Of a stretch of DNA of 64,000 nucleotides, positions 7,691 to 22,071 are shown one piece after another (position 1 is the stretch's first letter; every line of letters starts with the position of its first letter). The stretch is from a candidate division WOR-3 bacterium (GTDB lineage Bacteria; Hydrothermota; 32-111), in the NCBI GenBank assembly GCA_037481815.1, contig JBBFKX010000003.1, forward strand, positions 160,001 to 224,000. Direction: 5' to 3'. A program made the position numbers and the translations under genes. The notes under the pieces were generated by a model, which searched no databases, had not been told where the DNA came from, and worked only from the letters and a program-made list of their open reading frames with translations.

Positions 7691-8606
7691 TTTCCATCTC
7701 ACCTTTGAATGACAGAATCAACCTGTGTTTTAAAACATAGGGAGCAACTTTTACAACATCATCTATATCGGGCGTAACTCTTCCATCCATCAGTGCATAT
7801 CCTTTTGCTGCAGCGATGATAAAAATTCCAGCCCTTGGACTCGCTCCCCATTTGATATACTCTTTTACAAGATCAACTTCACTCGTTTCAGGTCTTGAGT
7901 TTCTTAAAATTTTTGAAACAGTTTCAACGATGTTCGACCCAACAGGTGCACTTTTAACATATTCCTGTATCTTTATTATATCATCCTTTTTAACTATGCC
8001 CTGATCAATTTTAAAATCTTCGTTCACGATCCTTTGTTTTAAAATCTCCATCTCATATCTTTTTTCAGGATAATCTATCTGTATCATGAACATAAATCTA
8101 TCAAGTTCCGCCTCAGGTAAAGGATATGTACCTTCCTGTTCGATCGGGTTCTGTGTGGCAAACACATTGAACGGTTTTTCGAGTTGATAATCAACACCTT
8201 CATTTGTGACCATTCTTTCTTCCATCGATTGCAAAAGTGCTGCCTGAGTTTTGGGAGGTGTTCTATTTATCTCATCGGCAAGTATTATATTTGCAAACAC
8301 AGGACCTTTTATGAACTTGTACAGGGTTTCATTTCCATCCTTTCTTAGGACTGTTGTTCCAGTAATATCTGAAGGCATAAGATCCGGTGTAAACTGGATT
8401 CTACTATATTTACAATCTATGCTCTTTGCGATAAGTTTTATTATCAATGTTTTTGCAAGACCGGGAACACCAACTATTATTGAATGAGAATCACATATCA
8501 AAGTCAAAAATACCATCCTTATTATCTGATCCTGTCCTGCTACAACTTTTTTTACATTCTCTTCTATTCTTTTATAAATTTTTGAAACATCTATGATTTC
8601 ATTCAT
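7638..8606 (-). CDS. MoxR family AAA+ ATPase
   Basis: [35 protein letters not shown] and [22 protein letters not shown] motifs. Confidence 0.93.
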
Positions 8607-11130
8607 CTTTTTCCTCTAAATTCTCTTCTTCATCTGATCCTTCATCCTCTTCCCCATACTGTTGTTCATCAACATTTTTTTCACTTCCATTTCCATTCTC
8701 GTTGTATTCATGTGCTATTATCGCAACATCGACTAGTTTATCACCTTCTGCAAGGTTCATCAATCTAACACCAGCAGTGTTCCTTCCGATAACTCTTATA
8801 TCCGATACTGCAATCCTTACTATCTGTCCCGATTCTGCTATCAAAAGAAGTTCATCTTTATCAAGAACTTCGATAGCATCAACAACAGCACCGTTCCTTT
8901 CATGTGTTTTTATCGCTATTACCCCTTTTCCACCTCTATGTGTCTTTCTGTATTCCTGCATCTCTGATCTTTTTCCATATCCATTTTCTGTTGCAATAAA
9001 CAGTGTCGATTCCCTTTTAACAACAACCATGCTGACAACCTCATCACCCTCTTCAAGTGTGACACCTTTAACTCCAGTTGCTCCTCTTCCCATATCTCTC
9101 ACTTCATTTTCTTCAAACCTTATCGCCATTCCCCACTTTGTCACTATGATAACATCGTTTGTTCCATCTGTTAAAGCAACATCTGCAACATTATCATTTT
9201 CATTAAGGTTGAGAGCGATTATTCCACCTTTTCGAGGATTGCTGAATGCGGAAAGTTCTGTTTTCTTTGCTATACCATTTTTTGTGATTATGAAGACAAA
9301 ATGTTTATCATCAAACTCTCTTACGGGAACAGTTCCTCTGATCTCTTCATCCTTTTCAAGTTCAAGAAGGTTGACTATCGCTCTTCCTTTTGATGTTCTT
9401 CCACCTTCAGGGATCTGGAAAACTTTCAACCAGTAAACCTTTCCTTTGTTTGTGAAGAATAGAATATACTGATGTGTTGATGCGATAAAAATCTTTTCAG
9501 CGAAATCATCATCCTTTGTTGTTAATCCGATAACTCCCTTTCCCCCTCTATTCTGTTTCCTGTATGAGGAAATAGATTGTCTTTTTATATATCCCTGATG
9601 TGTTATCGTCACTATAACATTTTCATCCGCTATAAGATCCTCTATTTCAAGTTCCTCATCCTCATTTGGAACTATTTCTGTCAATCTTCCGTCTCCATAC
9701 TCTTTTTTGATTTCAAGAAGTTCCTCTTTTACAACATTCAGAATATTTTTTTCAGATGAAAGTATGAATTTCAACCTTTCGATAAGTTTTATCAACTCTT
9801 CATACTCCTGATCGAGTTTCTCCCTTTCAAGGCCGGTCAACCTTGCAAGTTTCATTTCAAGTATCGCGTTTGCCTGAATTTCTGATAGTTTAAATTTTTT
9901 CTGAAGTTTTTCTGATGCATCCTGAACATTCTCTGATGTTTTTATTATTTTTACAACTTCATCGATATTTGAAACTGCGATTTTCAGTCCTTCAACGATG
10001 TGTGCCCTTTCCTCTGCTTTTTTCAGATCAAATTCTGTTCTTCTTCTGACAACTTCTTCTCTATGTTTTATGTAATGATGGATAATATCCTTCAATCCTA
10101 AAACTTTTGGTTCATTGTTCACAAGACAGATAAACATTATGGAATATGAGGTCTTCAGTTGAGTGTGTTTATAGAGTTGATTTAAAACAACTCTTTTCTC
10201 TGCACCTCTTTTGAGTTCAAGCACTATCCTCATTCCATCCCTATCGCTCTCATCTCTTATATCTGAAATATCTTCTATAACTTTGTTGTTAACAAGTTCA
10301 GCGATCTTTTCGATCAATTTTGCTTTATTTGTCTGATAGGGTATTTCAGTTATAATGATCTGTTCTTTTTCATTCTTTTTTGTTTCAAATTTAACTTTTC
10401 CTTTTAAAATTATCTGCCCTTTTCCTGTCTCATACGCTTTTTTTATTCCACTTATTCCCTGAATTATTCCACCTGTCGGGAAATCTGGTCCCTTTATATA
10501 TTTCATCAACTTTTCAACACTGATTTCAGGGTTATCTATGTATGCAACCATTCCATCAACAAGTTCTGTGATGTTATGTGGTGGAATATTTGTAGCCATT
10601 CCAACAGCGATTCCAGAAGTTCCATTCGCAAGAATGTTTGGAAACTTTGATGGGAGAACTACCGGTTCTTTGTAAGAACCATCAAAGTTTGGCATAAAGT
10701 TGACAGTATCCTTATCGATATCAACAAGCATCTCCTCAGCGATTTTTGAGAGTTTTGCTTCCGTGTACCTGTAAGCAGCAGCAGAATCACCATCTATTGA
10801 ACCAAAGTTTCCCTGTCCTTTCACAAGTGGATACCTTAATGAAAAGTCCTGAACCATTCTGACGAGTGTTTCATAAACAGCCATATCTCCATGAGGATGG
10901 TATTTACCAAGAACATCTCCAACAACTGTTGCTGACTTTTTAAACGGTTTGTTGTGGTAAAGCCCAAGTTCTTTCATCGCATAGAGTATTCTACGATGTA
11001 CTGGTTTTAAACCATCACGAACATCAGGTAAAGCCCTGCTTATGATTACAGACATTGCGTAATCGAGATAAGAGGACTTCATTTCATCTTCGATAGTTAC
11101 ATCAATGATTCTCTGTCTGTTGATATCCAT
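8599..11130 (-). CDS. gyrA: DNA gyrase subunit A
   Basis: [23 protein letters not shown], catalytic AAYRYTE, GyrA-box QNRGGKG, C-terminal pinwheel repeats and acidic tail. Confidence 0.97.
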
Positions 11131-11142
11131 TTACAAAACTCC

Positions 11143-11445
11143 TTAGTATTGTGGATAATTTTTATTTTTCACATTACCATTATTTTTATTGTAAACAAAA
11201 TCCTCTAACGGATTTTCAAGTGTTAGATTTAGTTCAGAAAGATCCTCAGGATACCTTCCATTGTTCATATAAAATGTTGCTATACCATTCCTTAACTTGT
11301 TAAGGTCAGATAACACTTTTGTTTTATCCGGAAGTTGTAAAACCTTTTCTGTTGTTTCTATTGTTTCTTTTTTTGTCTCACAAGCGTTGAATAACATCGA
11401 TATAAATAAAATTATCATAAAAATAAATAATATTCTTTTTATCAT
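11143..11445 (-). CDS. Small lipoprotein with pseudopilin-G-like C-terminal helix
   Basis: Lipobox-like LFNAC; DLNKLRNGIATFYMNNGRYPEDLSEL resembles the GspG/pilin head; GGAG RBS. Confidence 0.55.
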   Translation of the reverse strand: MIKRILFIFMIILFISMLFNACETKKETIETTEKVLQLPDKTKVLSDLNKLRNGIATFYMNNGRYPEDLSELNLTLENPLEDFVYNKNNGNVKNKNYPQY

Positions 11446-11519
11446 AATAAGAACTCCTAAAATTTAATGTTTTATTATAACAAAAAACTGAAAATCTTTC
11501 AACTAAAATCAGTTATTTT

Positions 11520-11553
11520 AAAAAATAAAAATGGGCAGATATTGAATCTGCCC
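11520..11553 (-). terminator. Intrinsic terminator of tracrRNA
   Basis: Perfect 8-bp stem 11533-11540/11546-11553 followed on the minus strand by ATTTTTATTTTT. Confidence 0.8.
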
Positions 11554-11600
11554 GCTGAGCCCCGTAGGGCTTAACAGTTCGGCTTACGCCTTACTGGGAC

Positions 11601-11628
11601 TTGACTACAAAACCATTTTAAGTAGAAT
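11601..11628 (+). promoter_or_regulatory. Putative cas9-cas1-cas2 promoter embedded in the anti-repeat DNA
   Basis: TTGACT (11601-11606), 16 bp, TAGAAT (11623-11628); ends 47 bp before the cas9 ATG. Confidence 0.6.
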
Positions 11629-11636
11629 TTAAAAAT

Positions 11637-11664
11637 ATTTTAACTATTTAAAAATTTTTGTCAA
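11637..11664 (-). promoter_or_regulatory. Putative tracrRNA promoter
   Basis: TTGACA (11664-11659), 16 bp, TAAAAT (11642-11637); predicted start about 11630, at the 5' end of the anti-repeat. Confidence 0.7.
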
Positions 11665-11675
11665 GGGGGAATTTT

Positions 11676-14600
11676 ATGAAGTATGTTCTTGGTCTTGATC
11701 TTGGATACAATTCAATCGGCTGGGCTATTTTAGAACAGGATGAAAATGGTAATCCTGTAAAACTTATAAATACAGGTGTTAGATTGTTTGATCCTTCAGT
11801 AGAAGACATGGAAAAGGATGGAAAGGGAAAAACAAAAAATGTCACAAGAAGAGAGGCAAGATTAAGAAGAAGACAACTTTTTAGAAAAACGAAACGACTT
11901 GAAAAACTTTTAAATTTTTTTATAGAAAATAATTTTTTCGAAGATCAAAAAGAAAAGATTTATGATTCTTTTGAAAGGGACGAATTTTTATCCAAACTTG
12001 ATAAAGAATTGTTAAATCCTTATATTTAAGAAGAAAAGGTCTTGATGAAAAACTTGAATTAAAAGAACTCGCAAGGATATTTTACCATATTGCACAACAT
12101 AGAGGTTTTAAAACAACAAAACGAGAACTTGCAAAGATGGAAGATAATAATGAAAAGAAAAAAGAGTCAGGTATTGTGCAGAGTGAGATAAATTCTCTTG
12201 CTGAACAAATAAAACAATCTGGCAGTAGAACTTTGGGAGAATATTTTGCAACACTTTTTGAAAAAGGAGAAAGAATCAGAGGAAAACATACAAGCAGAAA
12301 AATGTATGAAGAGGAGTTTGAGCAGATTTTTAAAAAACAGAAAGAGTTCTATCCAGAAATTTTAACAGATGATTTTAAGAAAAAACTTTACAAACTCATT
12401 TTCTTCCAGAGAGAATTGAAAAGCCAGAAAGATAAAGTTGGAGAATGTATTCTTGAAAAAGGTAAAAAAAGAGCACCCATTGCTCTCCTTGATTCTCAAA
12501 GGTTCAGATATATGTGCAAGGTAAACAATTTGAAACTGATTGATAAAGATACCGGAGAAATAACAGAGTTAACAAAAGAAGAAAAACAGAAAATTTTCAA
12601 TGAACTCGAAAACAATGAAAAACTGACTTTTGATAAGATAAAAAAACTTCTTGGTATAAAAGACAAAGAAAGATTCATTTTCAATATAGAGAAAGGTGGA
12701 GAAAAACATATCACTGGAAACAGAACAAATGTGAAGATGAAAAAGGTTTTTGATGATTGGGACAATTTTGATGAAGAGAAAAAGAACTCCATGATAAACG
12801 AAATCAGAACAATTGTAAAAATAGAAGCACTCGAAAGAAGAGGTTTAAAACTTGGATTTTCCCCTGAACAGGCAAAAAAATTCTCTCAGGTTGTTTTTGA
12901 AGATGGATATTTGAGTTATTCAAAAAAGGCGATCGAAAAACTTTTACCATTTTTAAAAGAAGGTTACAAAGAATATGATGCAATAAAAAAAGTTTACTCT
13001 GTTGAACTTGATAATCCAATACACGAAGAATTTGATTTTCTCCCTGAGATAGAAGATGTCATTCAAGTTAGAAATCCACTCGTTGAAAGAACCCTCTCTG
13101 AAACAAGATATCTTGTGAATTTTCTGATAAAAAAATATGGAAAACCAGAAACAATAAAAATAGAACTTGCAAGAGAATTGAAACTTTCAAATAAACAGAA
13201 AGAACAAAAAGTAAAGGAGAATCGAGAAAACAGGAAAAGAAGAGAGGATGCAATAGAAAAAATAAAAAATGATTTAAACATAACCGAACCAACAGAAGAT
13301 CAGATTTTAAGATACCTTCTTGCAGAAGAATGTGGTTGGCATTGCCCTTATACTGGAAAATCTATTAATATAAACGACCTTTTGGGTCCTCATCCATTAT
13401 TTGATATTGAGCATATAATTCCATTTGATAGATCTCTTGATAACTCTTTCTTAAACAAAACTCTCTGCTACTCAGAAGAAAACAGAAATGTAAAACACAA
13501 CAAAACACCCTATGAAGCATATTTTGGGACCGATAAGTGGGAAGCAATAATTGAAAGAGTAAAAAAATTCAATGGAAACGCCCGACTTGAAAAATTGAGA
13601 AGATTTCAGATGACACCAGAACAGGTTGAAAAACATTTTGAAGATTTTTCATCTCAATATTTGAACGACACAAGATACGCTTCAAAAGAAGCAAAAAAAT
13701 ATCTTGGTTTACTCTATGGTGGAATAAAAGATGATGGAATGGATAATAAAGGAAAAAGAAGAGTCATTGCAAGTTCTGGAAGAGTTACTTCAACATTAAG
13801 AAAAGCCCTTGGATTGAATACAATTTTAAACGAAGAAGATTTCAAAATAAGAGATGACCATCGCCAGCATGCTATTGATGCTATAACAATAGCGTTAACT
13901 GATAATTCAACTATCAAAAAAATTTCTGATGCTGCAAAAAAAGAAAAATCTTTAGAAAAACTTTTCAAAAACTATCCTCTTCCATGGGAAAATTTCAGGC
14001 AGGAGGTTGAAGAAAAAATTACAAACCTTCTCGTTTCAAGAAAAGTTAACAAAAAAGTTTCAGGTCAGATACATGATGAAACATATTACAAAAAACCATT
14101 TGAAGAGAACGGTCAATCTTATACACACAAAAGAGTTAATTTGGAAAGTTTAAGTGAAAAAGATATTGACAATATAGTTGATGAAAGAATAAAAGAGATT
14201 GTAAAAACAACTCTAAACGGAGAAGATCCTAAAATCAAATTCAAAGATCCTAAAAATCATCCTTATGTCGAACAAAAAGATGGAAAAAAAGTTCAAATAC
14301 ATAAGGTTACAATAAAAACCAAATTTGAAACTTATAATGAAATTGGCCCAGAAAAAGCGAAAAGATATGTTCAATCAGCAGATAGCCATCATATTGAAAT
14401 CTTTGAAGATTTGAAAACAGGCAAATGGGATGGATATGTTGTTTCTCTACTTGAGGCATACAAAAGAAAACAGAAAAATCTTCCAATCATAAACAGGAAC
14501 TTCGGAGAGAACAAAAAATTCTTATTTTCTCTTGCAAAAGGAGAGGTTATCGAACTTGATACTGAAGAGGGGAAAAGAGAGTTGTATGTTATAAAAAGAA

Positions 14601-14773
14601 TAGCAGGGAACAATAAACAATTGTTGTTCACTAAAATCCATGATGCAAGAAAATCTGATGAAATTAATAAAAACCCAAAAGGGCTAACAGCTGTTCCATC
14701 TGGACTACAGGCAAGAAATTGTAAAAAAGTTGTTATAAATATTCTTGGAGAAAAACATTACGCAAATGATTGA
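11676..14773 (+). pseudogene. cas9: Type II-C Cas9, frameshifted at about 12026 (about 1032 aa if repaired)
   Basis: RuvC-I YVLGLDLG and Arg-rich bridge helix in ORF 11676-12029. The -1 frame continues LRRKGLDEKL...HIAQHRGF into the 12137-14773 ORF, which carries IELAR, HNH DIEHIIP...N and RuvC-III DHRQHAIDA. Confidence 0.93.
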
Positions 14774-15686
14774 AAAAATAGTTGAGATTTCAGAAGGACC
14801 TGTAAAACTTTCTTCTGAGTATGAACAACTGATAGTATCAAAAAATGGAAGTGAAATTTTAAAAATTCCTTTAAATGAAATCGCTGTTATTCTAATTTCA
14901 ACTCCACTTGCTTCAATTTCAACAAATGTAATTTCTCTAATAACCAAAAATAAAGGGATGATTGTAACCTGTGATCAATTCTATCTTCCAGTTGGTGTAT
15001 TTTTACCTTATGAACTCAATTACATTCAATATGAAAGAATACAAAAACAGATTAACGCTTCTTTGCCATTAAAAAAACAACTCTGGAAACAGATAATTTC
15101 AGAGAAAATAAATTCTCAGGCATCAGTTTTAAAAAAACATAAAGGAAACGATTTTGGACTTTTCTACATTTCACAAAAAGTTCAATCAGGTGATTCAACA
15201 AACCTTGAAGCATACTCTTCAAAAATCTACTGGAAACAACTTTTTGGAGAAAAATTCAAACGCGATAAAGATCTACCTGGTGTTAATTCTATTTTAAACT
15301 ATGGTTATACAATTTTAAGAGCGATGACAGCAAGAGCGGTCTGTTCTTCTGGATTAAATCCAACACTTGGTATATTCCATCATAATAAATACAATACCTT
15401 CTGTCTTGCTGACGATCTTATGGAACCATATAGGCCTATAGTTGATGAGTTAACTTATAAGTTGATGATCAACTCAGGAATACAACTCTTTTTAACAAAA
15501 GAGTTAAAAAAAGAAATCATCGAACAACTTCTGGACAAAAAATTTGAAGTTAACAAAGAAAATTATTCACTTAACGAGTCACTGTTTAAATTAGCATCAT
15601 CTCTTGTAAATGTTTATAATGGAAAAGAGAAAAAGTTAAATATTCCAACACCTTATGAAAAGGAAAAAAACACCAACACAAAATAA
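14766..15686 (+). CDS. cas1: Type II CRISPR-associated endonuclease Cas1
   Basis: LWKQII, SGDSTNLEA, NSILNYGYTILR, LGIFH and FCLADDLMEPYRP motifs; overlaps the cas9 end. Confidence 0.95.
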   Translation: MIEKIVEISEGPVKLSSEYEQLIVSKNGSEILKIPLNEIAVILISTPLASISTNVISLITKNKGMIVTCDQFYLPVGVFLPYELNYIQYERIQKQINASLPLKKQLWKQIISEKINSQASVLKKHKGNDFGLFYISQKVQSGDSTNLEAYSSKIYWKQLFGEKFKRDKDLPGVNSILNYGYTILRAMTARAVCSSGLNPTLGIFHHNKYNTFCLADDLMEPYRPIVDELTYKLMINSGIQLFLTKELKKEIIEQLLDKKFEVNKENYSLNESLFKLASSLVNVYNGKEKKLNIPTPYEKEKNTNTK

Positions 15687-16005
15687 CAGATACCATTCGA
15701 TGTGGATTTTAGCACTTTTCGATTTACCAACATTAACAAAAGAGGACAGAAAAAATTACAGGGACTTTAGAAAAGAACTTTTAAAATCTGGTTTTGAACA
15801 ATTACAATTTTCTGTGTATGCAAGATATGTCGGTGACGAAAAAAGAGCGGAAACATTTAAAAACAAAATAAAATCGGTTGTTCCACCAAAAGGTGAAGTC
15901 AGAATAATCTGTTTAACAGATATCCAGTTTGGAAAGATGGAAGTATATTATCAAAATTCCAGGAAAAAACCTGAAAAGAAACTTGAACAACTTCTACTTT
16001 TTTAA
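15655..16005 (+). CDS. cas2: CRISPR-associated endoribonuclease Cas2
   Basis: MWILALFDLP, YRDFRKELLKSGFEQLQFSVY, PPKGEVR and C-terminal QLLLF. Start may be 15700. Confidence 0.95.
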   Translation: MKRKKTPTQNNRYHSMWILALFDLPTLTKEDRKNYRDFRKELLKSGFEQLQFSVYARYVGDEKRAETFKNKIKSVVPPKGEVRIICLTDIQFGKMEVYYQNSRKKPEKKLEQLLLF

Positions 16006-16019
16006 TCCAGTTTTAACAA

Positions 16020-16055
16020 TAAACCCTCTCATTGTGTGAACTTAAGAGAGGGTCT
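16020..16055 (-). terminator. Hairpin between cas2 and the array; likely terminator of array transcripts and part of the leader
   Basis: ACCCTCTC (16023-16030) pairs with GAGAGGGT (16046-16053); followed on the minus strand by TTATTGTT. Confidence 0.55.
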
Positions 16056-17742
16056 ATTCTACTTGAAATGGTTTTGTGGTCAAGCCCCAGCAAAGTTTTA
16101 TGCATAGATTCTAAAATTAGTATTCTACTTGAAATGGTTTTGTGGTCAAGCCCCAGCGAAAAATCCTTTGACTTTTCTACAATGCTTATTCTACTTGAAA
16201 TGGTTTTGTGGTCAAGCCCCAGCGCGATTATATTCTTCAAAACAAAATCCTCTATTCTACTTGAAATGGTTTTGTGGTCAAGCCCCAGCTAAACTATGAC
16301 AATAGTGAGGATACTGCTAATTCTACTTGAAATGGTTTTGTGGTCAAGCCCCAGCAACCTTCTTTTGATAATGTCAATATGATAAATTCTACTTGAAATG
16401 GTTTTGTGGTCAAGCCCCAGCGGGATAGCGGAGCAATAGAAAGTGATGCATATTCTACTTGAAATGGTTTTGTGGTCAAGCCCCAGCCAAATAAGAGATG
16501 ATATAGAAGTACTATATATTCTACTTGAAATGGTTTTGTGGTCAAGCCCCAGCTACTCGCTTCTTTCAAGGATGAAAAATAAAATTCTACTTGAAATGGT
16601 TTTGTGGTCAAGCCCCAGCGCTGGAGTTTGTTTCAAGTAATGACTCACCATTCTACTTGAAATGGTTTTGTGGTCAAGCCCCAGCAACTTATGAGGTTTA
16701 TAAAAAATTAAACGAATTCTACTTGAAATGGTTTTGTGGTCAAGCCCCAGCAAAAAAATGTTTTATATATAATAGAAACAAATTCTACTTGAAATGGTTT
16801 TGTGGTCAAGCCCCAGCAGCTTTGAACCCGGTTTATACAGTATTCATATTCTACTTGAAATGGTTTTGTGGTCAAGCCCCAGCCAATTCTTGTGCTTTGT
16901 TTTCAAGTGTGTTATTCTACTTGAAATGGTTTTGTGGTCAAGCCCCAGCAAAGGAATAGGTGTTGGTTTAGGGGCTGGTATTCTACTTGAAATGGTTTTG
17001 TGGTCAAGCCCCAGCCATAGATGGGTCTGATGCATACCCAGATAAATTCTACTTGAAATGGTTTTGTGGTCAAGCCCCAGCTGTTTAATTTGCTTCCTGT
17101 ATTGTAATATTATTCTACTTGAAATGGTTTTGTGGTCAAGCCCCAGCCAAAAACCAAAATGACAGATGTTGAAAGTGATTCTACTTGAAATGGTTTTGTG
17201 GTCAAGCCCCAGCCATAGATGGGTCTGATGCATACCCAGATAAATTCTACTTGAAATGGTTTTGTGGTCAAGCCCCAGCTGTTTAATTTGCTTCCTGTAT
17301 TGTAATATTATTCTACTTGAAATGGTTTTGTGGTCAAGCCCCAGCCAAAAACCAAAATGACAGATGTTGAAAGTGATTCTACTTGAAATGGTTTTGTGGT
17401 CAAGCCCCAGCTATCGATTTGGTTTTGTAATAACATGGTTAATTCTACTTGAAATGGTTTTGTGGTCAAGCCCCAGCCTCGAGTTTGTTTCAAGTAATGA
17501 CTCACCAATTCTACTTGAAATGGTTTTGTGGTCAAGCCCCAGCACCCGGCTTCAATGTTTTTATCTGTATTGAATTCTACTTGAAATGGTTTTGTGGTCA
17601 AGCCCCAGCTCGACTGCACTGGAGATGCTGTTGTTGGAGAATTCTACTTGAAATGGTTTTGTGGTCAAGCCCCAGCTCATTTTTTTGTAAAACTTCCTTA
17701 AAAAATATTCTACTTGAAATGTTTTTGTGGTCAAGCCCCAGC
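16056..17742 (-). CRISPR. CRISPR array: 26 repeats of 36 bp (minus-strand GCTGGGGCTTGACCACAAAACCATTTCAAGTAGAAT) and 25 spacers (24 of 30 bp, one of 31 bp)
   Basis: 66-bp periodicity counted directly; the only variant repeat is 17707-17742. Orientation inferred from tracrRNA complementarity and the repeat-internal promoter. Confidence 0.98.
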
Positions 17743-17770
17743 TAAGAAGTATATTGTTAAATTGTTATTG

Positions 17771-18058
17771 GGGACGGTGCTTGACTTTTTGACTTTTTTT
17801 TGTAACTTTATTTTTTTACGAAACTTAAAATTGATATAAATTTTTAGTTTTTTTTAATTTTTTTAAAACAAAAAAGTAAACTTTTTTATTCAATATCTTT
17901 TTTTGCCTTTGTTTATGATAGTTTCGGAATAATATAAATAGTGAAAATACAACAAAAACCTTAAAAAAATAAATAAAATTCTAACAGTTTTTTTTCGTAT
18001 AACTTATTTTAAAACAATAAGTTAAAATATTTACTGTCAAAAAGTCAAGCACCGTCCC
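17771..18058. mobile_element. 288-bp MITE/REP-like element with 23-bp perfect terminal inverted repeats
   Basis: GGGACGGTGCTTGACTTTTTGAC at 17771-17793 and its reverse complement at 18036-18058; very AT-rich non-coding interior; no target-site duplication seen. Confidence 0.55.
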
Positions 18059-18117
18059 TAAGTTTATTTTTATATTAAAATCTTGTTTTATCTTAAATAA
18101 CCTGTTATAATTATTTT

Positions 18118-18312
18118 ATGAAAAAACCTGTAAAAATTCTAAAGCAAAAGGAAAAAGCAGAATTTAATCGAAGTGTCTGGCATAACATGACTCCTGATGA
18201 AAGATTACAGATTGTTGAAAAATTAAAAGAAAATTATGTCAAAAGTTTTTTAAACAAAAATGCACAAGGATTTAAAAGAGTTTTTAAAAAGTTTAAACGA
18301 AAAAAAAGTTGA
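18118..18312 (+). CDS. Small protein (64 aa), putative partner of the downstream nucleotidyltransferase
   Basis: WHNMTPDERL motif of small proteins that typically precede such nucleotidyltransferases; TGnTATAAT ends 6 nt before the ATG. Confidence 0.5.
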   Translation: MKKPVKILKQKEKAEFNRSVWHNMTPDERLQIVEKLKENYVKSFLNKNAQGFKRVFKKFKRKKS

Positions 18313-18694
18313 TTACATGATTGTTGGAGGAATAGCAGTAGCATATTACGGTTATCCCCGCTACACTGGTGATATAGACATCTGGATAAAAAAGTCAAAA
18401 GAAAATGCTCAAAAAGTTATTGAGGTGGTAAAAAATTTTGGCTATTCAAATATCGATTTATCACTTGAGGATCTCCTTGAAGATAATATGGTTTTTCAAT
18501 TCGGAGTTGAACCAAATAGAAACGATTTAATCACAGATCTGGATGGTATAACTTTTGAAAAAGCAGAGAAAAATAAACAATTGATATCTCTTTAAAACAT
18601 TTCAGTTTATATTGTTTCTCTTGAAGATTTAAAGAAAAATAAAAAGGCATCAGGAAGATATAAAGATCTTGATGATATTGAAAATCTTCCGTGA
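18260..18694 (+). pseudogene. Nucleotidyltransferase-fold protein (DUF6036-like) with in-frame TAA at 18593-18595
   Basis: YMIVGGIAVAYYGYPRYTGDIDIW motif; the same frame continues after the stop with NISVYIVSLEDLKKNKKASGRYKDLDDIENLP, the expected C-terminus. Confidence 0.75.
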
Positions 18695-18800
18695 TATATA
18701 AATAATCGCAATGTGTATTTTATTGTTATTTTTTGATATTAAAATTTAAAAGAAGCTCTGATTTAAGGGGACAGGTGTTTCAAAGTTCCAAGATCTAATC

Positions 18801-19784
18801 TCAAAATTTTGGAAATACCTCCATGCCATTTTTGTTGAGGTATTTTGTAACACCAACACTACCATTCTCTTTATACTGAAAAATTTCAACAGCATACCCA
18901 TAAACATTGTTCACAAGCATATCCTCTTCATCAGTATAAAAAATCTTTTCAAGTTGTCCTTTTGAGTTGTAAACAAAGCCCTTTTTTGCATAACCAACAA
19001 TAAAACTCTCTTTCAAATTGCCTTTCTCATCATGATAACTTTCTTCGATTTTTCTCCCCTTACTATCATATTTCCATCTTTTTATTGGGACATAAAGTTC
19101 GTTGGCACCTTTTAAACTATCATTTTTATCATAAAAACTTTCCTCTATCAATCTTCCATTGTTATCATATTTCCATTTGATTTTAGCACATCCGTATAAA
19201 TCCTCTGCAATTTCTCCATTTTCAAAATGTTGTTGTTCAACACATCTTCCATCTGAATCATACAAAAATCTGTATTCTGCAACTCCACAATAATCTTTAA
19301 CCTGATTTCCATTTTCGTCAAAATTTATGTTTTGAACAACATGTTTTAAATCTTTTCCTTTTTTATCTTTGAACACCTGATAGAAAAATTTCATTCTATA
19401 TACACCATCACTCGTTTTGATCTGATTATCATCTTTATCTTTAAAAATAAACTCTTTACCTAAACTATCATAATTAATAATAATCTTCGCAACACCAAAT
19501 ATTCCACCATTTTTCAGTTTGTTTTGCTGATAATACTCTATCGTCTTCAAAAGGTCATTTTCATATTTGAAACGATAATACTCAAAATAATTTTCAGGAT
19601 TTTTCAGTTCATCAACTCCAACAAATTCAAAATTCGTTGAAACCCCATAATCAAAACTAAGATAAGTGATTTCTTTCTGGTTCTGATTGCAATTGACTTT
19701 GCAAACATTTCCAACACACTCCCCTGCAGTTAGAAATAAATTTAATACAAAACCTATAATAATGAATAAAAAATTTCTTTTCAT
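18801..19784 (-). CDS. Secreted protein with YD/RHS-like repeats
   Basis: Signal peptide; repeats FLYDSDGRCVEQ, WKYDNNGRLIEESFYD, WKYDSKGRKIEESYHD, VYNSKGQL. Confidence 0.6.
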   Translation of the reverse strand: MKRNFLFIIIGFVLNLFLTAGECVGNVCKVNCNQNQKEITYLSFDYGVSTNFEFVGVDELKNPENYFEYYRFKYENDLLKTIEYYQQNKLKNGGIFGVAKIIINYDSLGKEFIFKDKDDNQIKTSDGVYRMKFFYQVFKDKKGKDLKHVVQNINFDENGNQVKDYCGVAEYRFLYDSDGRCVEQQHFENGEIAEDLYGCAKIKWKYDNNGRLIEESFYDKNDSLKGANELYVPIKRWKYDSKGRKIEESYHDEKGNLKESFIVGYAKKGFVYNSKGQLEKIFYTDEEDMLVNNVYGYAVEIFQYKENGSVGVTKYLNKNGMEVFPKF

Positions 19785-19910
19785 AAATCTCCTTTATTTT
19801 TCTAAATTCTATAAAAAAAAATAAAATGTTCAATACTTAATTAAAAAAATTTTTGAGAAAAACCTGATTGTTTGATACATTTCAATCTATAAATCTATTA
19901 TGGATTAAAT

Positions 19911-19937
19911 AAAGGGACAGGCAATTCTGTCCCTTTT
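19911..19937. terminator. Bidirectional terminator-like hairpin downstream of the LVIVD gene
   Basis: AAAGGGACAG (19911-19920) pairs with CTGTCCCTTT (19927-19936). Confidence 0.7.
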
Positions 19938-19947
19938 ATCAATTAAA

Positions 19948-22071
19948 CTATTTAACTATAATAAGTTTACCATTATACTCTTTTTTACCATCAACAAGTT
20001 TTATAAAATATACTCCCTTTTTAAGTTTTTTCGTATTCAAAATATAATTTCCTGGATTTTTATCTTTTTCAAAAATCACCTGTTTACCAGAAACATCATA
20101 AACAACTATTTCATTTGTTTTTCCATTCAATGTGTATTCAAAAGAATTAAGATTAATCTCCATTTTAGTAACATTTTCTTTAAGATTTTCTTTTTCAAGG
20201 TTGGTAAGAGTATTTTTCAATATATAAAAACACCCGGATGCAAGATAAACATAATTATTATCAGCCCAAACATCCCTTGCTTCTCCTGGCGTATCATAAT
20301 ATCCAACTTCTTGAGGATTTGTTGGATCTGTTACATCTATAACCCTTACACCCGAATTCTGATCAGCCACATAAGCATAATTTCCAACAACACAAACATC
20401 CCAGGACCAACCAGGTGTATCATAATATCCAACCTCTTGAGGATTTGTTGGATCTGTTATATCAACTATCCTGAGACCAAAAGTTCCATCCGCCAAATAA
20501 GCGTAGTTTCCAGAAACAAATACTCCCCTTGACCAGCCTTGAGAAACATAATATCCCAACACAACTGGTGATGATGGATTTGAAATGTTTACTATTTTAA
20601 AACCATTATTATTTAATGCCAAAAAAGCATAATTCCCATTTACACAAATATTGTAAATATAACCAACAGTATCAACAGAAGCAACTTTTGAAGGAGATGT
20701 GGGGTTTGAAACATCCACAATGCATAAGCCAGAATCACCATCTGCAATATAAGCATAGTTCCCGGAAACAACAACATTGTTTGGATAACCAGGAGTATCA
20801 TAAACACCCACTTGTGTTATGTTTGCAGGATCAGAAATATTCAATATTCGCAAACCCCAACCAACATCAGTTACATAAGCATAATTTCCAGTAACATAAT
20901 GTCCATTGGTATTATTAACATTACTATAACTTCCCACCTCATAAGGATTAAATTTATTTGAGATATCAATTATCCTAAATCCACATTCTCCATTTGTAAC
21001 ATAAGCATAATTTCCAACAACATATACATAATAAGATAAACCATAAAAACCATAACTCCCAATTTGGGCTGGTATCGAAGGATTTGAAACATCAACTATC
21101 ATCAATCCCAAAGTTGAAACACATGCATAAACATAGTTACTATCTTTAAAAATATATTCAACAAACTCACCAAAACTAAAATTACTTACTAACACAGGAT
21201 TAGATTTATCTGAAACATCCAAGATTAAAATTCCCCAATATCCATTTGCCACATAAGCATAGTTTCCACTAACATTAACATTTAAAGCCAAACAATTTGT
21301 GGCATAATATCCTGTTTCAAAAGGAGTTGATGGGTTTGTTATATCAAAAATCCTTACCCCACCCCAGTATCCATCAGCAACATAAACATAATTACCTGAA
21401 ATAAAAAGATCATACGCATAACCAGGGGTATCAACAGAAACAACTTTTGAAGGAGATGTGGGGTTTGAAACATCTACAATGCATAAGCCAGAATCACCAT
21501 CTGCAATATAAGCATAGTTCCCGGAAACAACAATGCTCATTTCCCAACCTGGAGAATTAAAATAACCCACCTCTACTGGATTTAACATATTGGAAATGTT
21601 TAAAATTACAAGACCATTACTACCATCAAGAACATAAGCAATTGTATCTTTTACAAAAATATTATAAGCAACACCTGATGTATCATAAAATCTTATAAAT
21701 GTTGGATTTGAAGGATCAGATACATCATAGATTCCAATACCAGTTAACCCACAGGCAATATATAAATGATTTCCTTCAACAAAAATCCCATTTATATACT
21801 CTGGGGCTCCGATCTCGCTCAAAAACACTGGATTGTTTTTGTTTTTCACATTAAGTAATACCACATAATAATCAGATTGAACGAAAGCGATAGTATCAAC
21901 AACATAAACTTTTCTTGCATAACCATAGTAAGGAACTCTTCCGATTCTTTTCATGTTCAAACTATCATAGGTATTTTTGGGGTTGGCGAAACCTTTAAAA
22001 TATAGCATCTCCTCAGCAGAAACCGAAATCAAAACTAATAAAATAAAAAGAGTTAAATAAACTTTTTTCAT
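19948..22071 (-). CDS. LVIVD-repeat beta-propeller surface protein with T9SS type A-like C-terminal sorting domain
   Basis: Signal peptide; a dozen or more ~42-aa repeats (GNYAYVA...GLRIVDxSNP...VGYYDTPG); C-terminal VYDVSGKQV...LKKGVYFIKL...KLIIVK. Confidence 0.85.
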   Translation of the reverse strand: MKKVYLTLFILLVLISVSAEEMLYFKGFANPKNTYDSLNMKRIGRVPYYGYARKVYVVDTIAFVQSDYYVVLLNVKNKNNPVFLSEIGAPEYINGIFVEGNHLYIACGLTGIGIYDVSDPSNPTFIRFYDTSGVAYNIFVKDTIAYVLDGSNGLVILNISNMLNPVEVGYFNSPGWEMSIVVSGNYAYIADGDSGLCIVDVSNPTSPSKVVSVDTPGYAYDLFISGNYVYVADGYWGGVRIFDITNPSTPFETGYYATNCLALNVNVSGNYAYVANGYWGILILDVSDKSNPVLVSNFSFGEFVEYIFKDSNYVYACVSTLGLMIVDVSNPSIPAQIGSYGFYGLSYYVYVVGNYAYVTNGECGFRIIDISNKFNPYEVGSYSNVNNTNGHYVTGNYAYVTDVGWGLRILNISDPANITQVGVYDTPGYPNNVVVSGNYAYIADGDSGLCIVDVSNPTSPSKVASVDTVGYIYNICVNGNYAFLALNNNGFKIVNISNPSSPVVLGYYVSQGWSRGVFVSGNYAYLADGTFGLRIVDITDPTNPQEVGYYDTPGWSWDVCVVGNYAYVADQNSGVRVIDVTDPTNPQEVGYYDTPGEARDVWADNNYVYLASGCFYILKNTLTNLEKENLKENVTKMEINLNSFEYTLNGKTNEIVVYDVSGKQVIFEKDKNPGNYILNTKKLKKGVYFIKLVDGKKEYNGKLIIVK
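20669..21533. repeat. Near-identical intragenic duplication, 20669-20774 versus 21428-21533 (106 bp, 2 mismatches)
   Basis: Direct comparison; offset 759 bp. A second pair, 20291-20333 versus 20417-20459, is 43 bp with 1 mismatch. Confidence 0.85.

Follow-up and report, generated by a model that had tools for sequence, protein, structure and literature searches.

How are the guide RNAs of a compact Cas9 system transcribed—from one promoter outside the array, or from each repeat in turn? The question is raised by a locus in a candidate division WOR-3 bacterium (Hydrothermota; assembly GCA_037481815.1, contig JBBFKX010000003.1, positions 160,001 to 224,000 of the forward strand; this whole stretch of 64,000 nt is hereafter called the window), where a CRISPR array at positions 16056–17742 carries the motif TTGACC-N16-TAGAAT in every repeat of its minus strand. 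A first-pass annotation had taken this motif for a complete bipartite promoter, built on the host's own pattern, that does the work of the extended −10 in Neisseria/Campylobacter-type repeats. Our analysis makes it probable that each repeat is an active, rather weak host-type promoter to which the −35 hexamer contributes, such that the 5′ ends of CRISPR RNAs (crRNAs) need no processing; both polymerase initiation at the repeats and the contribution of the −35 are inferred from sequence features.

The array alternates 26 direct repeats, each 36 nt long, with 25 spacers, of which 24 measure 30 nt and one measures 31 nt. Read on the minus strand, the repeat is GCTGGGGC-TTGACC-ACAAAACCATTTCAAG-TAGAAT, with the −35 at repeat positions 9–14 and the −10 at 31–36, and a consensus scanner called TTGACC and TAGAAT at a spacing of 16 in 26/26 repeats (10/12 consensus matches, no TG before the second hexamer), exactly as the first-pass annotation had described. 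TAGAAT forms the final six bases of all 26 repeats, and AAG, not the TGn of an extended −10, stands directly 5′ of it in every one. Twenty-five of the repeats are identical; the single mismatch, in the last repeat (17707–17742, minus strand), falls at repeat position 21, inside the 16-nt promoter spacer, and both hexamers are intact in all 26. This is the cas-distal repeat, the first in the direction of transcription and the "extra" or oldest one; its sequence equals the normal repeat of a same-genus genome (G002), whose own distal repeat is mutated as well, so that both genomes have a degenerate repeat at the cas-distal, transcription-proximal end, as is usual for type II-C. Mutated extra repeats are typical of that type, in which new spacers are inserted at the last-transcribed repeat (PMC12080349; papers given by PMC number are cited from excerpts of their text). 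No spacer was found to be common to any two of the six compared genomes, namely the host and five of the same genus, and the polarity of acquisition rests on the degenerate distal repeat together with the literature.

The host's promoters were described by an expectation-maximisation fit to 386 upstream regions, which returned T[AC]TTGA[CA][AT]-N16-TA[AT]AAT at about 192 sites. The −35 of this pattern is more informative than the −10 (about 6.9 versus 3.2 bits, summed over the hexamers), and the TG signal is faint, with G at a frequency of 0.25 at the −14 position. Across the unmasked genome (1.58 Mb), TTGACN-Nx-TANNNT occurs 230 times at x = 16, 27 of these in the array region, versus 53–102 times at the other values of x between 13 and 20. 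With the array and a dispersed element masked, the genome-wide count is 197 at x = 16 versus 78, 67 and 56 at x = 13, 14 and 15 and 99, 73, 74 and 51 at x = 17, 18, 19 and 20. Inflation of the excess at x = 16 by the dispersed element, which has 35 copies and bears TTGAC, was considered and rejected, since masking it lowered the count from 203 (230 minus 27) to 197. In the window outside the array, the same pattern occurs 10 times at x = 16 versus 2–4 times at x = 14, 15, 17, 18 and 19, so that the 16-bp spacing, which had been put forward as the host pattern, holds for the window and for the genome alike. Most of the intergenic matches at this spacing (89/126) lie no more than 150 nt upstream of the start of a same-strand open reading frame (ORF), and at least one host gene that appears to be leaderless has TAGAAT for its −10. 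The preference of this host for a 16-bp rather than a 17-bp spacer, alongside a very strong −35 TTGA(C), is an observation in its own right.

Set against this pattern, the repeat's likeness to host promoters is weak to middling. The repeat agrees with the consensus at 10 of 12 bases and in its 16-bp spacing, departing from it by a C at −35 position 6 and a G at −10 position 3, and scores 8.2 bits on the host matrix. Chance is an unlikely source of the motif: only 2 of 200,000 composition-preserving shuffles reach that score, as do 666 of 1,711,140 host positions (contig C1, both strands), and a site scoring at least as high is present in 170 of the 386 upstream regions.

The locus is a type II-C CRISPR-Cas9 system made up of a trans-activating crRNA (tracrRNA), cas9, cas1, cas2 and the array. 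On the plus strand, cas9 (11677–14773, split into ORFs at 11677–12029 and 12137–14773) has the Pfam domains HNH_4, Cas9_a and RuvC_III, and the intact ortholog in the same-genus genome G001 matches TIGR01865 at 705 bits; it is followed by cas1 of the type II NMENI class (14745–15686; PF01867, and TIGR03639 at 281 bits) and cas2 (15655–16005; PF09827, TIGR01573). No csn2 or cas4 was found among the ORFs of the locus (ORF list 8000–21000), and none of the ORFs scanned past the array is a cas gene; cas1 and cas2 are the only ORFs separating cas9 from the array, and gyrA lies upstream on the other strand. It is this set of cas9, cas1 and cas2 without csn2 or cas4 that assigns the locus to type II-C, the type already named in the first-pass annotation and borne out by the profile matches. 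The array has the layout of that type, lying downstream of cas2, antisense to the cas genes and read toward cas2; a degenerate transcription-proximal repeat and reading convergent with the cas genes are both II-C traits (PMC4607530, PMC12080349). The host genome also encodes RNase III.

The tracrRNA gene (11525–11630, minus strand) consists of an anti-repeat running from 11628 to 11594, a nexus-like hairpin (AAGGC..GCC), one more hairpin and finally a hairpin-plus-T-run terminator, which a scanner calls at 11553–11533. Apart from the array, the anti-repeat is the repeat's sole copy in the window; it lies just upstream of cas9, matches the repeat at 32/35 bases and reads, on the plus strand, like the minus-strand repeat of the array. 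Because it can pair only with minus-strand transcripts of the array, the crRNAs are assigned to the minus strand, with the array read toward cas2. In an alignment of the six genomes, 24 base pairs are predicted, four of them with compensatory changes. Repeats and anti-repeats show covariation at positions 21, 23 and 33. The tracrRNA promoter (TTGACA-N16-TAAAAT, 11637–11664, minus strand) matches the consensus at 11/12 bases, and its host-matrix score of 17.6 bits exceeds the 95th percentile of the best upstream sites; its TTGACA is kept in 6/6 genomes, and its predicted start, at about 11630, is the first base of the anti-repeat. Taken together, the promoter, the covarying hairpins, the terminator and the anti-repeat pairing agree in silico with the minus-strand orientation claimed by the first-pass annotation, and the match between repeat and anti-repeat likewise places the −35 of the repeat within the stretch that pairs with the tracrRNA, as had been proposed. 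An Rfam scan returned no match to a tracrRNA or CRISPR family and only a chance microRNA match (E = 0.09), Rfam's own tracrRNA models not having been checked.

The position at which transcription from a repeat would begin can be calibrated on the host's genes. At 615 strong sites, the distance from the −10 to an ATG that begins an ORF of 80 amino acids or more is 7, 8, 9 or 10 nt in 29, 21, 17 and 12 cases, and 1 to 6 nt in 3, 1, 2, 0, 0 and 1; these roughly 80 genes with an ATG 7–10 nt past a strong −10 suggest that many mRNAs are leaderless, beside genes with Shine-Dalgarno sequences. With a start about 7 nt past the −10 and the −10 at the repeat border, a crRNA would begin about 7 nt into the 30-nt spacer and carry a guide of about 24 nt. 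This prediction agrees with the 6–7 nt and the 23–24-nt guides given in the first-pass annotation, and it is close to the 23–26 nt of spacer present in the II-C crRNAs of Clostridium cellulolyticum (PMC7038990).

We therefore propose a mechanism in which the array would be transcribed on the minus strand toward cas2, each repeat acting as a housekeeping-type host promoter (−35 TTGACC, 16 bp, −10 TAGAAT ending at the last repeat base). RNA polymerase would start about 7 nt into the next spacer, giving a crRNA 5′ end with a guide of about 24 nt and no 5′ processing; the downstream repeat would pair with the tracrRNA, RNase III could cut the 3′ end, and transcripts that reach the cas2 end would encounter a hairpin. 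The hairpin in question (16018–16058, minus strand), of 13 bp with a U-rich stretch behind it, sits between the array and cas2 and is a candidate stop that would keep array transcripts from running antisense into cas2; its fold of −18.9 kcal/mol corresponds to z = −3.7, a stability equalled by 1 of 200 shuffles. With a loop of 15 nt, longer than the terminator scanner allows, it was not among the scanner's calls. The same hairpin folds on both strands and may also halt transcripts of the cas operon before the array.

Among the five same-genus genomes, the repeats vary only at positions 14, 16, 21, 23 and 33, and TTGAC, TA.AAT and the 16-bp spacing are invariant. The two changes that fall within hexamers both go toward the host consensus—C to T at −35 position 6, giving TTGACT, and G to T giving TATAAT—and scores on the host matrix rise to 9.4–12.1 bits; over the same-genus repeats as a whole the range is 8.5–12.1 bits. 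A wider search with the repeat pattern, leaving both hexamers free, returned five stretches in genome contigs and nine in metagenome contigs: apart from arrays with known repeats and one further array identical to the repeat of genome G004, these were single chance matches. Cas9 of this kind is present in 5/5 same-genus genomes and in 0/35 of the other relatives searched. A single-protein search of genome contigs for close Cas9 relatives gave no match, and an alignment-based search of species representatives gave 13 loci, all at no more than about 32% identity outside the genus; an array was present in 5 of the 11 Cas9 loci examined there.

The phylum of one such distant relative, on a record titled Opitutales, was surveyed for II-C repeats by searching 301 of its genomes for the RuvC_III domain of Cas9. 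Sixty genomes had a match, of which the 40 best-scoring were taken (loci L128–L167); the 20 left out, chosen by rank and by eye, included matches that were low-scoring, split or on short contigs, though not all were checked against these reasons. Arrays were present in 36 loci and a full-length repeat consensus could be derived in 34, yielding 32 distinct repeats. In the orientation antisense to cas9, 22/32 carry TTGnnn 16–18 bp before a terminal nAnnnT, compared with 0/32 in the opposite orientation and an average of 1.08 in shuffles; among the 28 repeats with a terminal nAnnnT, 11 have TTG alone, 11 both TTG and TGn, three TGn alone and three neither. The surveyed repeats are related to one another, and these counts are not independent events, although several visibly different families are represented. 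In one family, the TTG lies one base further 5′ at a spacing of 17 bp and the −10 is still terminal (GCTGTGA-TTGACC-N17-TACATT), and several of the repeats start with GCTGGGGCTTG, as does the repeat here. The bipartite −35/−10 layout is thus not specific to this locus, being common to a large branch of II-C repeats. The first-pass annotation had set this layout against the extended −10 of Neisseria and Campylobacter and had proposed a scan of II-C repeat collections; the survey made here of one other phylum shows the layout recurring, so that it is no peculiarity of this system. Since the layout is inherited and widespread within this branch, the 16-bp spacing is more likely to have been inherited than tuned to the host.

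Several observations weigh against reading each repeat as an active promoter with a contributing −35, beginning with its strength. At 8.2 bits, the repeat takes rank 170 of the 192 best upstream sites (median 13.0). About 3% of host sites have C at −35 position 6, as it does, and about 3% have its G at −10 position 3; its 16-nt promoter spacer is richer in G+C than those of host promoters, and these three features account for the deficit. The motif itself matches the host's TTGAC-N16-TAwAAT promoters. The low score, along with the presence of an RNase III gene, also favours an account in which one long precursor is made from a promoter beyond the cas-distal end and cut by RNase III and tracrRNA as in type II-A, the motifs in the repeats being silent; a host-type site on the minus strand 280 nt outside the array (TTGACT..TTTAAC, running from 18048 to 18021; 10.0 bits on the host matrix, absent from the list of the consensus scanner) could act as just such an ordinary external promoter. 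That site, however, is not specific to the array, because it sits inside one of the 35 genomic copies of the dispersed element. The newest spacers, moreover, would be 1.7 kb from such a promoter, and since they enter at the last-transcribed repeat they would be served worst by it; the motif is correctly placed in 26/26 repeats, against the two in 200,000 shuffles that equal its score; and the −10 stops at the very border of the repeat, just as it does where initiation was mapped (PMC3656092). We hold a silent motif under an external promoter to be very improbable. The state of cas9 raises a different doubt, as the gene is frameshifted in this assembly and, barring an assembly error, this strain may have a system without activity. 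In an alignment with two same-genus genomes, the T-run near 12026 (12020–12030) lacks one nucleotide, reading TATAT-TTAAG versus TACATTTTAAG, whereas the cas9 frame is open in 5/5 same-genus genomes (1032–1084 amino acids); the alternatives are a genuine mutation that inactivates the gene and an assembly error in a homopolymer. Were it real, the locus could be a decaying relic that no longer confers immunity and in which the motif is simply inherited, and the block duplication of three spacers would fit that picture. Yet the loss of a single homopolymer base is a common assembly error, the repeats are near-uniform, cas1, cas2 and the tracrRNA with its promoter are intact, and decay would concern this strain only, with no bearing on the role of the motif in the five relatives; we give this account very little credence.

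The most pertinent objection concerns the −35 alone. Conservation within the genus is a weak test, C(26,5)/C(36,5) = 0.17 being the probability that all five variable positions fall outside the ten core promoter bases; because of this, and because tracrRNA pairing constrains the same bases, the invariance of the hexamers fits a promoter and proves little. TTG at repeat positions 8–11 with a terminal −10 at a spacing of 16–17 bp recurs in the II-C families of another phylum, and the same TTG layout is seen in arrays on records titled Bacteroidales and Mucilaginibacter, so that TTG could be needed by the Cas9–guide scaffold and not by RNA polymerase; its agreement with the 16-bp spacing preferred in the host may be coincidental. 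On this account only the terminal −10 would act, much as in Neisseria or Campylobacter, and TTGACC would be kept for the crRNA:tracrRNA duplex that this clade of Cas9 recognises, its likeness to a −35 being a by-product. The 5′ part of the repeat, GCTGGGGCTTG / GTTGTGATTTGA, is indeed common to many of these families and arrays; positions 1–24 of a II-C repeat pair with the tracrRNA (in Campylobacter jejuni 24 nt, repeat nucleotides 2–25; PMC4607530); and the anti-repeat retains the same bases in 6/6 genomes. Against this stands the host itself, in which the −35 carries more information than the −10 and TG is faint, such that a bare TAGAAT without TG would be a poor promoter. Nor does the surveyed family with N17 behave as if TTG held a fixed structural position: the TTG has shifted and the −10 is still terminal, which is a promoter-like tolerance. 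At several surveyed loci (L129 and L135), finally, the anti-repeat has lost TTG while the array repeats keep it. We regard a −10 acting alone as unlikely, and the preferred reading remains that of a rather weak promoter in each repeat with both hexamers at work.

In Neisseria meningitidis, II-C crRNAs reportedly start from promoters inside each repeat, a finding attributed to Zhang et al. in 2013. Repeat-borne initiation has been shown experimentally in C. jejuni (PMC3656092) and in N. meningitidis (summarised in PMC5965381), and repeat-borne promoters in II-C systems are thus established; the full −35/−10 seen here is a modest addition to a known design. The N. meningitidis system resembles the present one in having only cas9, cas1 and cas2, 36-nt repeats that end in a −10, an array read toward cas2, starts inside each spacer, a tracrRNA that pairs with the repeat, and RNase III acting on the 3′ side only. 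In a Neisseria-type repeat (N. lactamica, Table 1 of PMC4607530), however, TGC precedes TACAAT, forming an extended −10, and TCCCTT stands in place of TTGACC; the repeat here has no TG and instead five of six −35 bases at 16 bp, and a function that was shown there is predicted here from sequence. C. jejuni likewise has a promoter at every repeat's 3′ end and starts a few bases into the spacer (position five, versus about seven predicted here), but its repeat ends in GGTAAAAT, described as an extended −10 with no −35 described in the excerpted text, and its tracrRNA adjoins the array, whereas here it lies upstream of cas9 (PMC3656092).

Other II-C repeats fall on the same axis. A survey of 58 of them (Pearson et al. 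2015; PMC4607530) found that they end in a sigma-70 −10, gnTAnaaT, and are convergent with the cas genes; its traits of a terminal −10, convergent reading and a degenerate transcription-proximal repeat all hold here, although the excerpted text describes only the −10, as opposed to the −35 and −10 here. Among the nine II-C repeats in Table 1 of that paper, 6/9 have TGn before the −10, and 0/6 of those have TTG 16–18 bp upstream. The C. cellulolyticum system (Fedorova et al. 2020; PMC7038990) also has its array opposite to the cas genes and an in-repeat promoter suggested from sequence, but there the final nine bases of the repeat look like an extended −10, and the excerpt mentions no −35. For the II-C systems of Flavobacterium columnare and F. 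psychrophilum, the crRNA promoter has been suggested to be an upstream element in the repeat, TTG, 33–35 bp before each spacer (Hoikkala et al. 2021; PMC8092290, PMC10309648), and an element on the −35 side within a II-C repeat is therefore already in print. That proposal is of the Bacteroidetes −33/−7 type and, in the excerpts, gives TTG without a −10 partner, whereas here both sigma-70-type hexamers match a consensus derived from the host; in the literature searched, as far as the excerpted texts go, it was the only stated −35 in II-C repeats.

What this locus adds is a clean case, a repeat in which both promoter halves match the consensus of the host's own genome, and the small survey suggests that the fuller −35/−10 design is common among II-C arrays. 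If confirmed, the reading would sharpen the picture of how compact Cas9 systems set their supply of crRNA, with one short stretch of the repeat under three constraints—promoter function, tracrRNA pairing and recognition by Cas9. It would also matter for moving such systems to other hosts, as a −35 that lies within the guide scaffold could not be freely changed on transfer.

Being an inverted copy of the repeat, the anti-repeat also carries the repeat's promoter on its plus strand, where it forms a candidate cas9 promoter (TTGACT-N16-TAGAAT, 11601–11628, plus strand; 11.5 bits, 10/12 consensus matches), a function predicted from its sequence and position. The motif points at cas9, whose ATG at 11677 lies 49 nt on, behind the ribosome-binding site AAGGGGGA; no plus-strand site from the upstream minus-strand gene to cas9 scores better, and the motif is kept in 6/6 genomes. 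In the surveyed phylum, an anti-repeat was detected in 12/34 loci, six of them with it 10–66 nt upstream of cas9 in the same orientation and its −35 part often decayed, which is too thin a basis for generalising to other phyla. Two further observations concern this interval: the candidate cas9 promoter and the tracrRNA promoter face each other across 11601–11664, with predicted starts at about 11635 (plus) and 11630 (minus), some 5 bp apart, an arrangement conserved in six genomes, and the −35 of the tracrRNA promoter overlaps the ribosome-binding site of cas9. With starts so close, two polymerases could hardly sit there together, and one may speculate about an expression switch between cas9 and tracrRNA arising from the opposed promoters.

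A broader proposition joins these strands: that II-C repeats follow two designs, the described extended −10 of Proteobacteria and Firmicutes and an undescribed full −35/−10, the majority form in lineages of the Fibrobacteres–Chlorobi–Bacteroidetes (FCB) and Planctomycetes–Verrucomicrobia–Chlamydiae (PVC) type, with its −35 inside the guide scaffold, and that in the present genus the anti-repeat is in addition a cas9 promoter opposing that of the tracrRNA. As a whole we find this rather doubtful and offer it tentatively. If the two designs are real, then in the second the strength of the promoter, pairing with the tracrRNA and recognition by Cas9 are bound to co-evolve; if the anti-repeat drives cas9, the locus would have a built-in switch between expression of cas9 and of tracrRNA.

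Bacteroidetes-type promoters, initially suspected in this host because a type IX secretion system (T9SS) sorting domain is encoded nearby, were rejected: TTTG-Nx-TAnnTTTG occurs 0–1 times at every spacing and TAnnTTTG shows no strand bias (47 versus 41), whereas the Shine-Dalgarno-like AAGGAG is enriched upstream of genes (106 versus 36 regions). The dispersed element, of about 30 nt (GGGGACGGTGCTTGAC TTTTTGACA...), has 35 copies in the host genome, occurring on many of the tiny contigs and in a cluster near 273–279 kb of contig C3; by the cas-distal end of the array, inverted copies at 17768–17793 and 18036–18061 (26 nt, 96% complementary) flank an A+T-rich segment of 242 bp. Within the array, spacers 15–17 recur as spacers 18–20 through a 198-bp tandem duplication (16980–17375), and spacers 9 and 22 (16620–16649 and 17478–17507) correspond to nearly the same target sequence with a one-base shift. 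The array of G001 contains larger internal duplications of spacer blocks.

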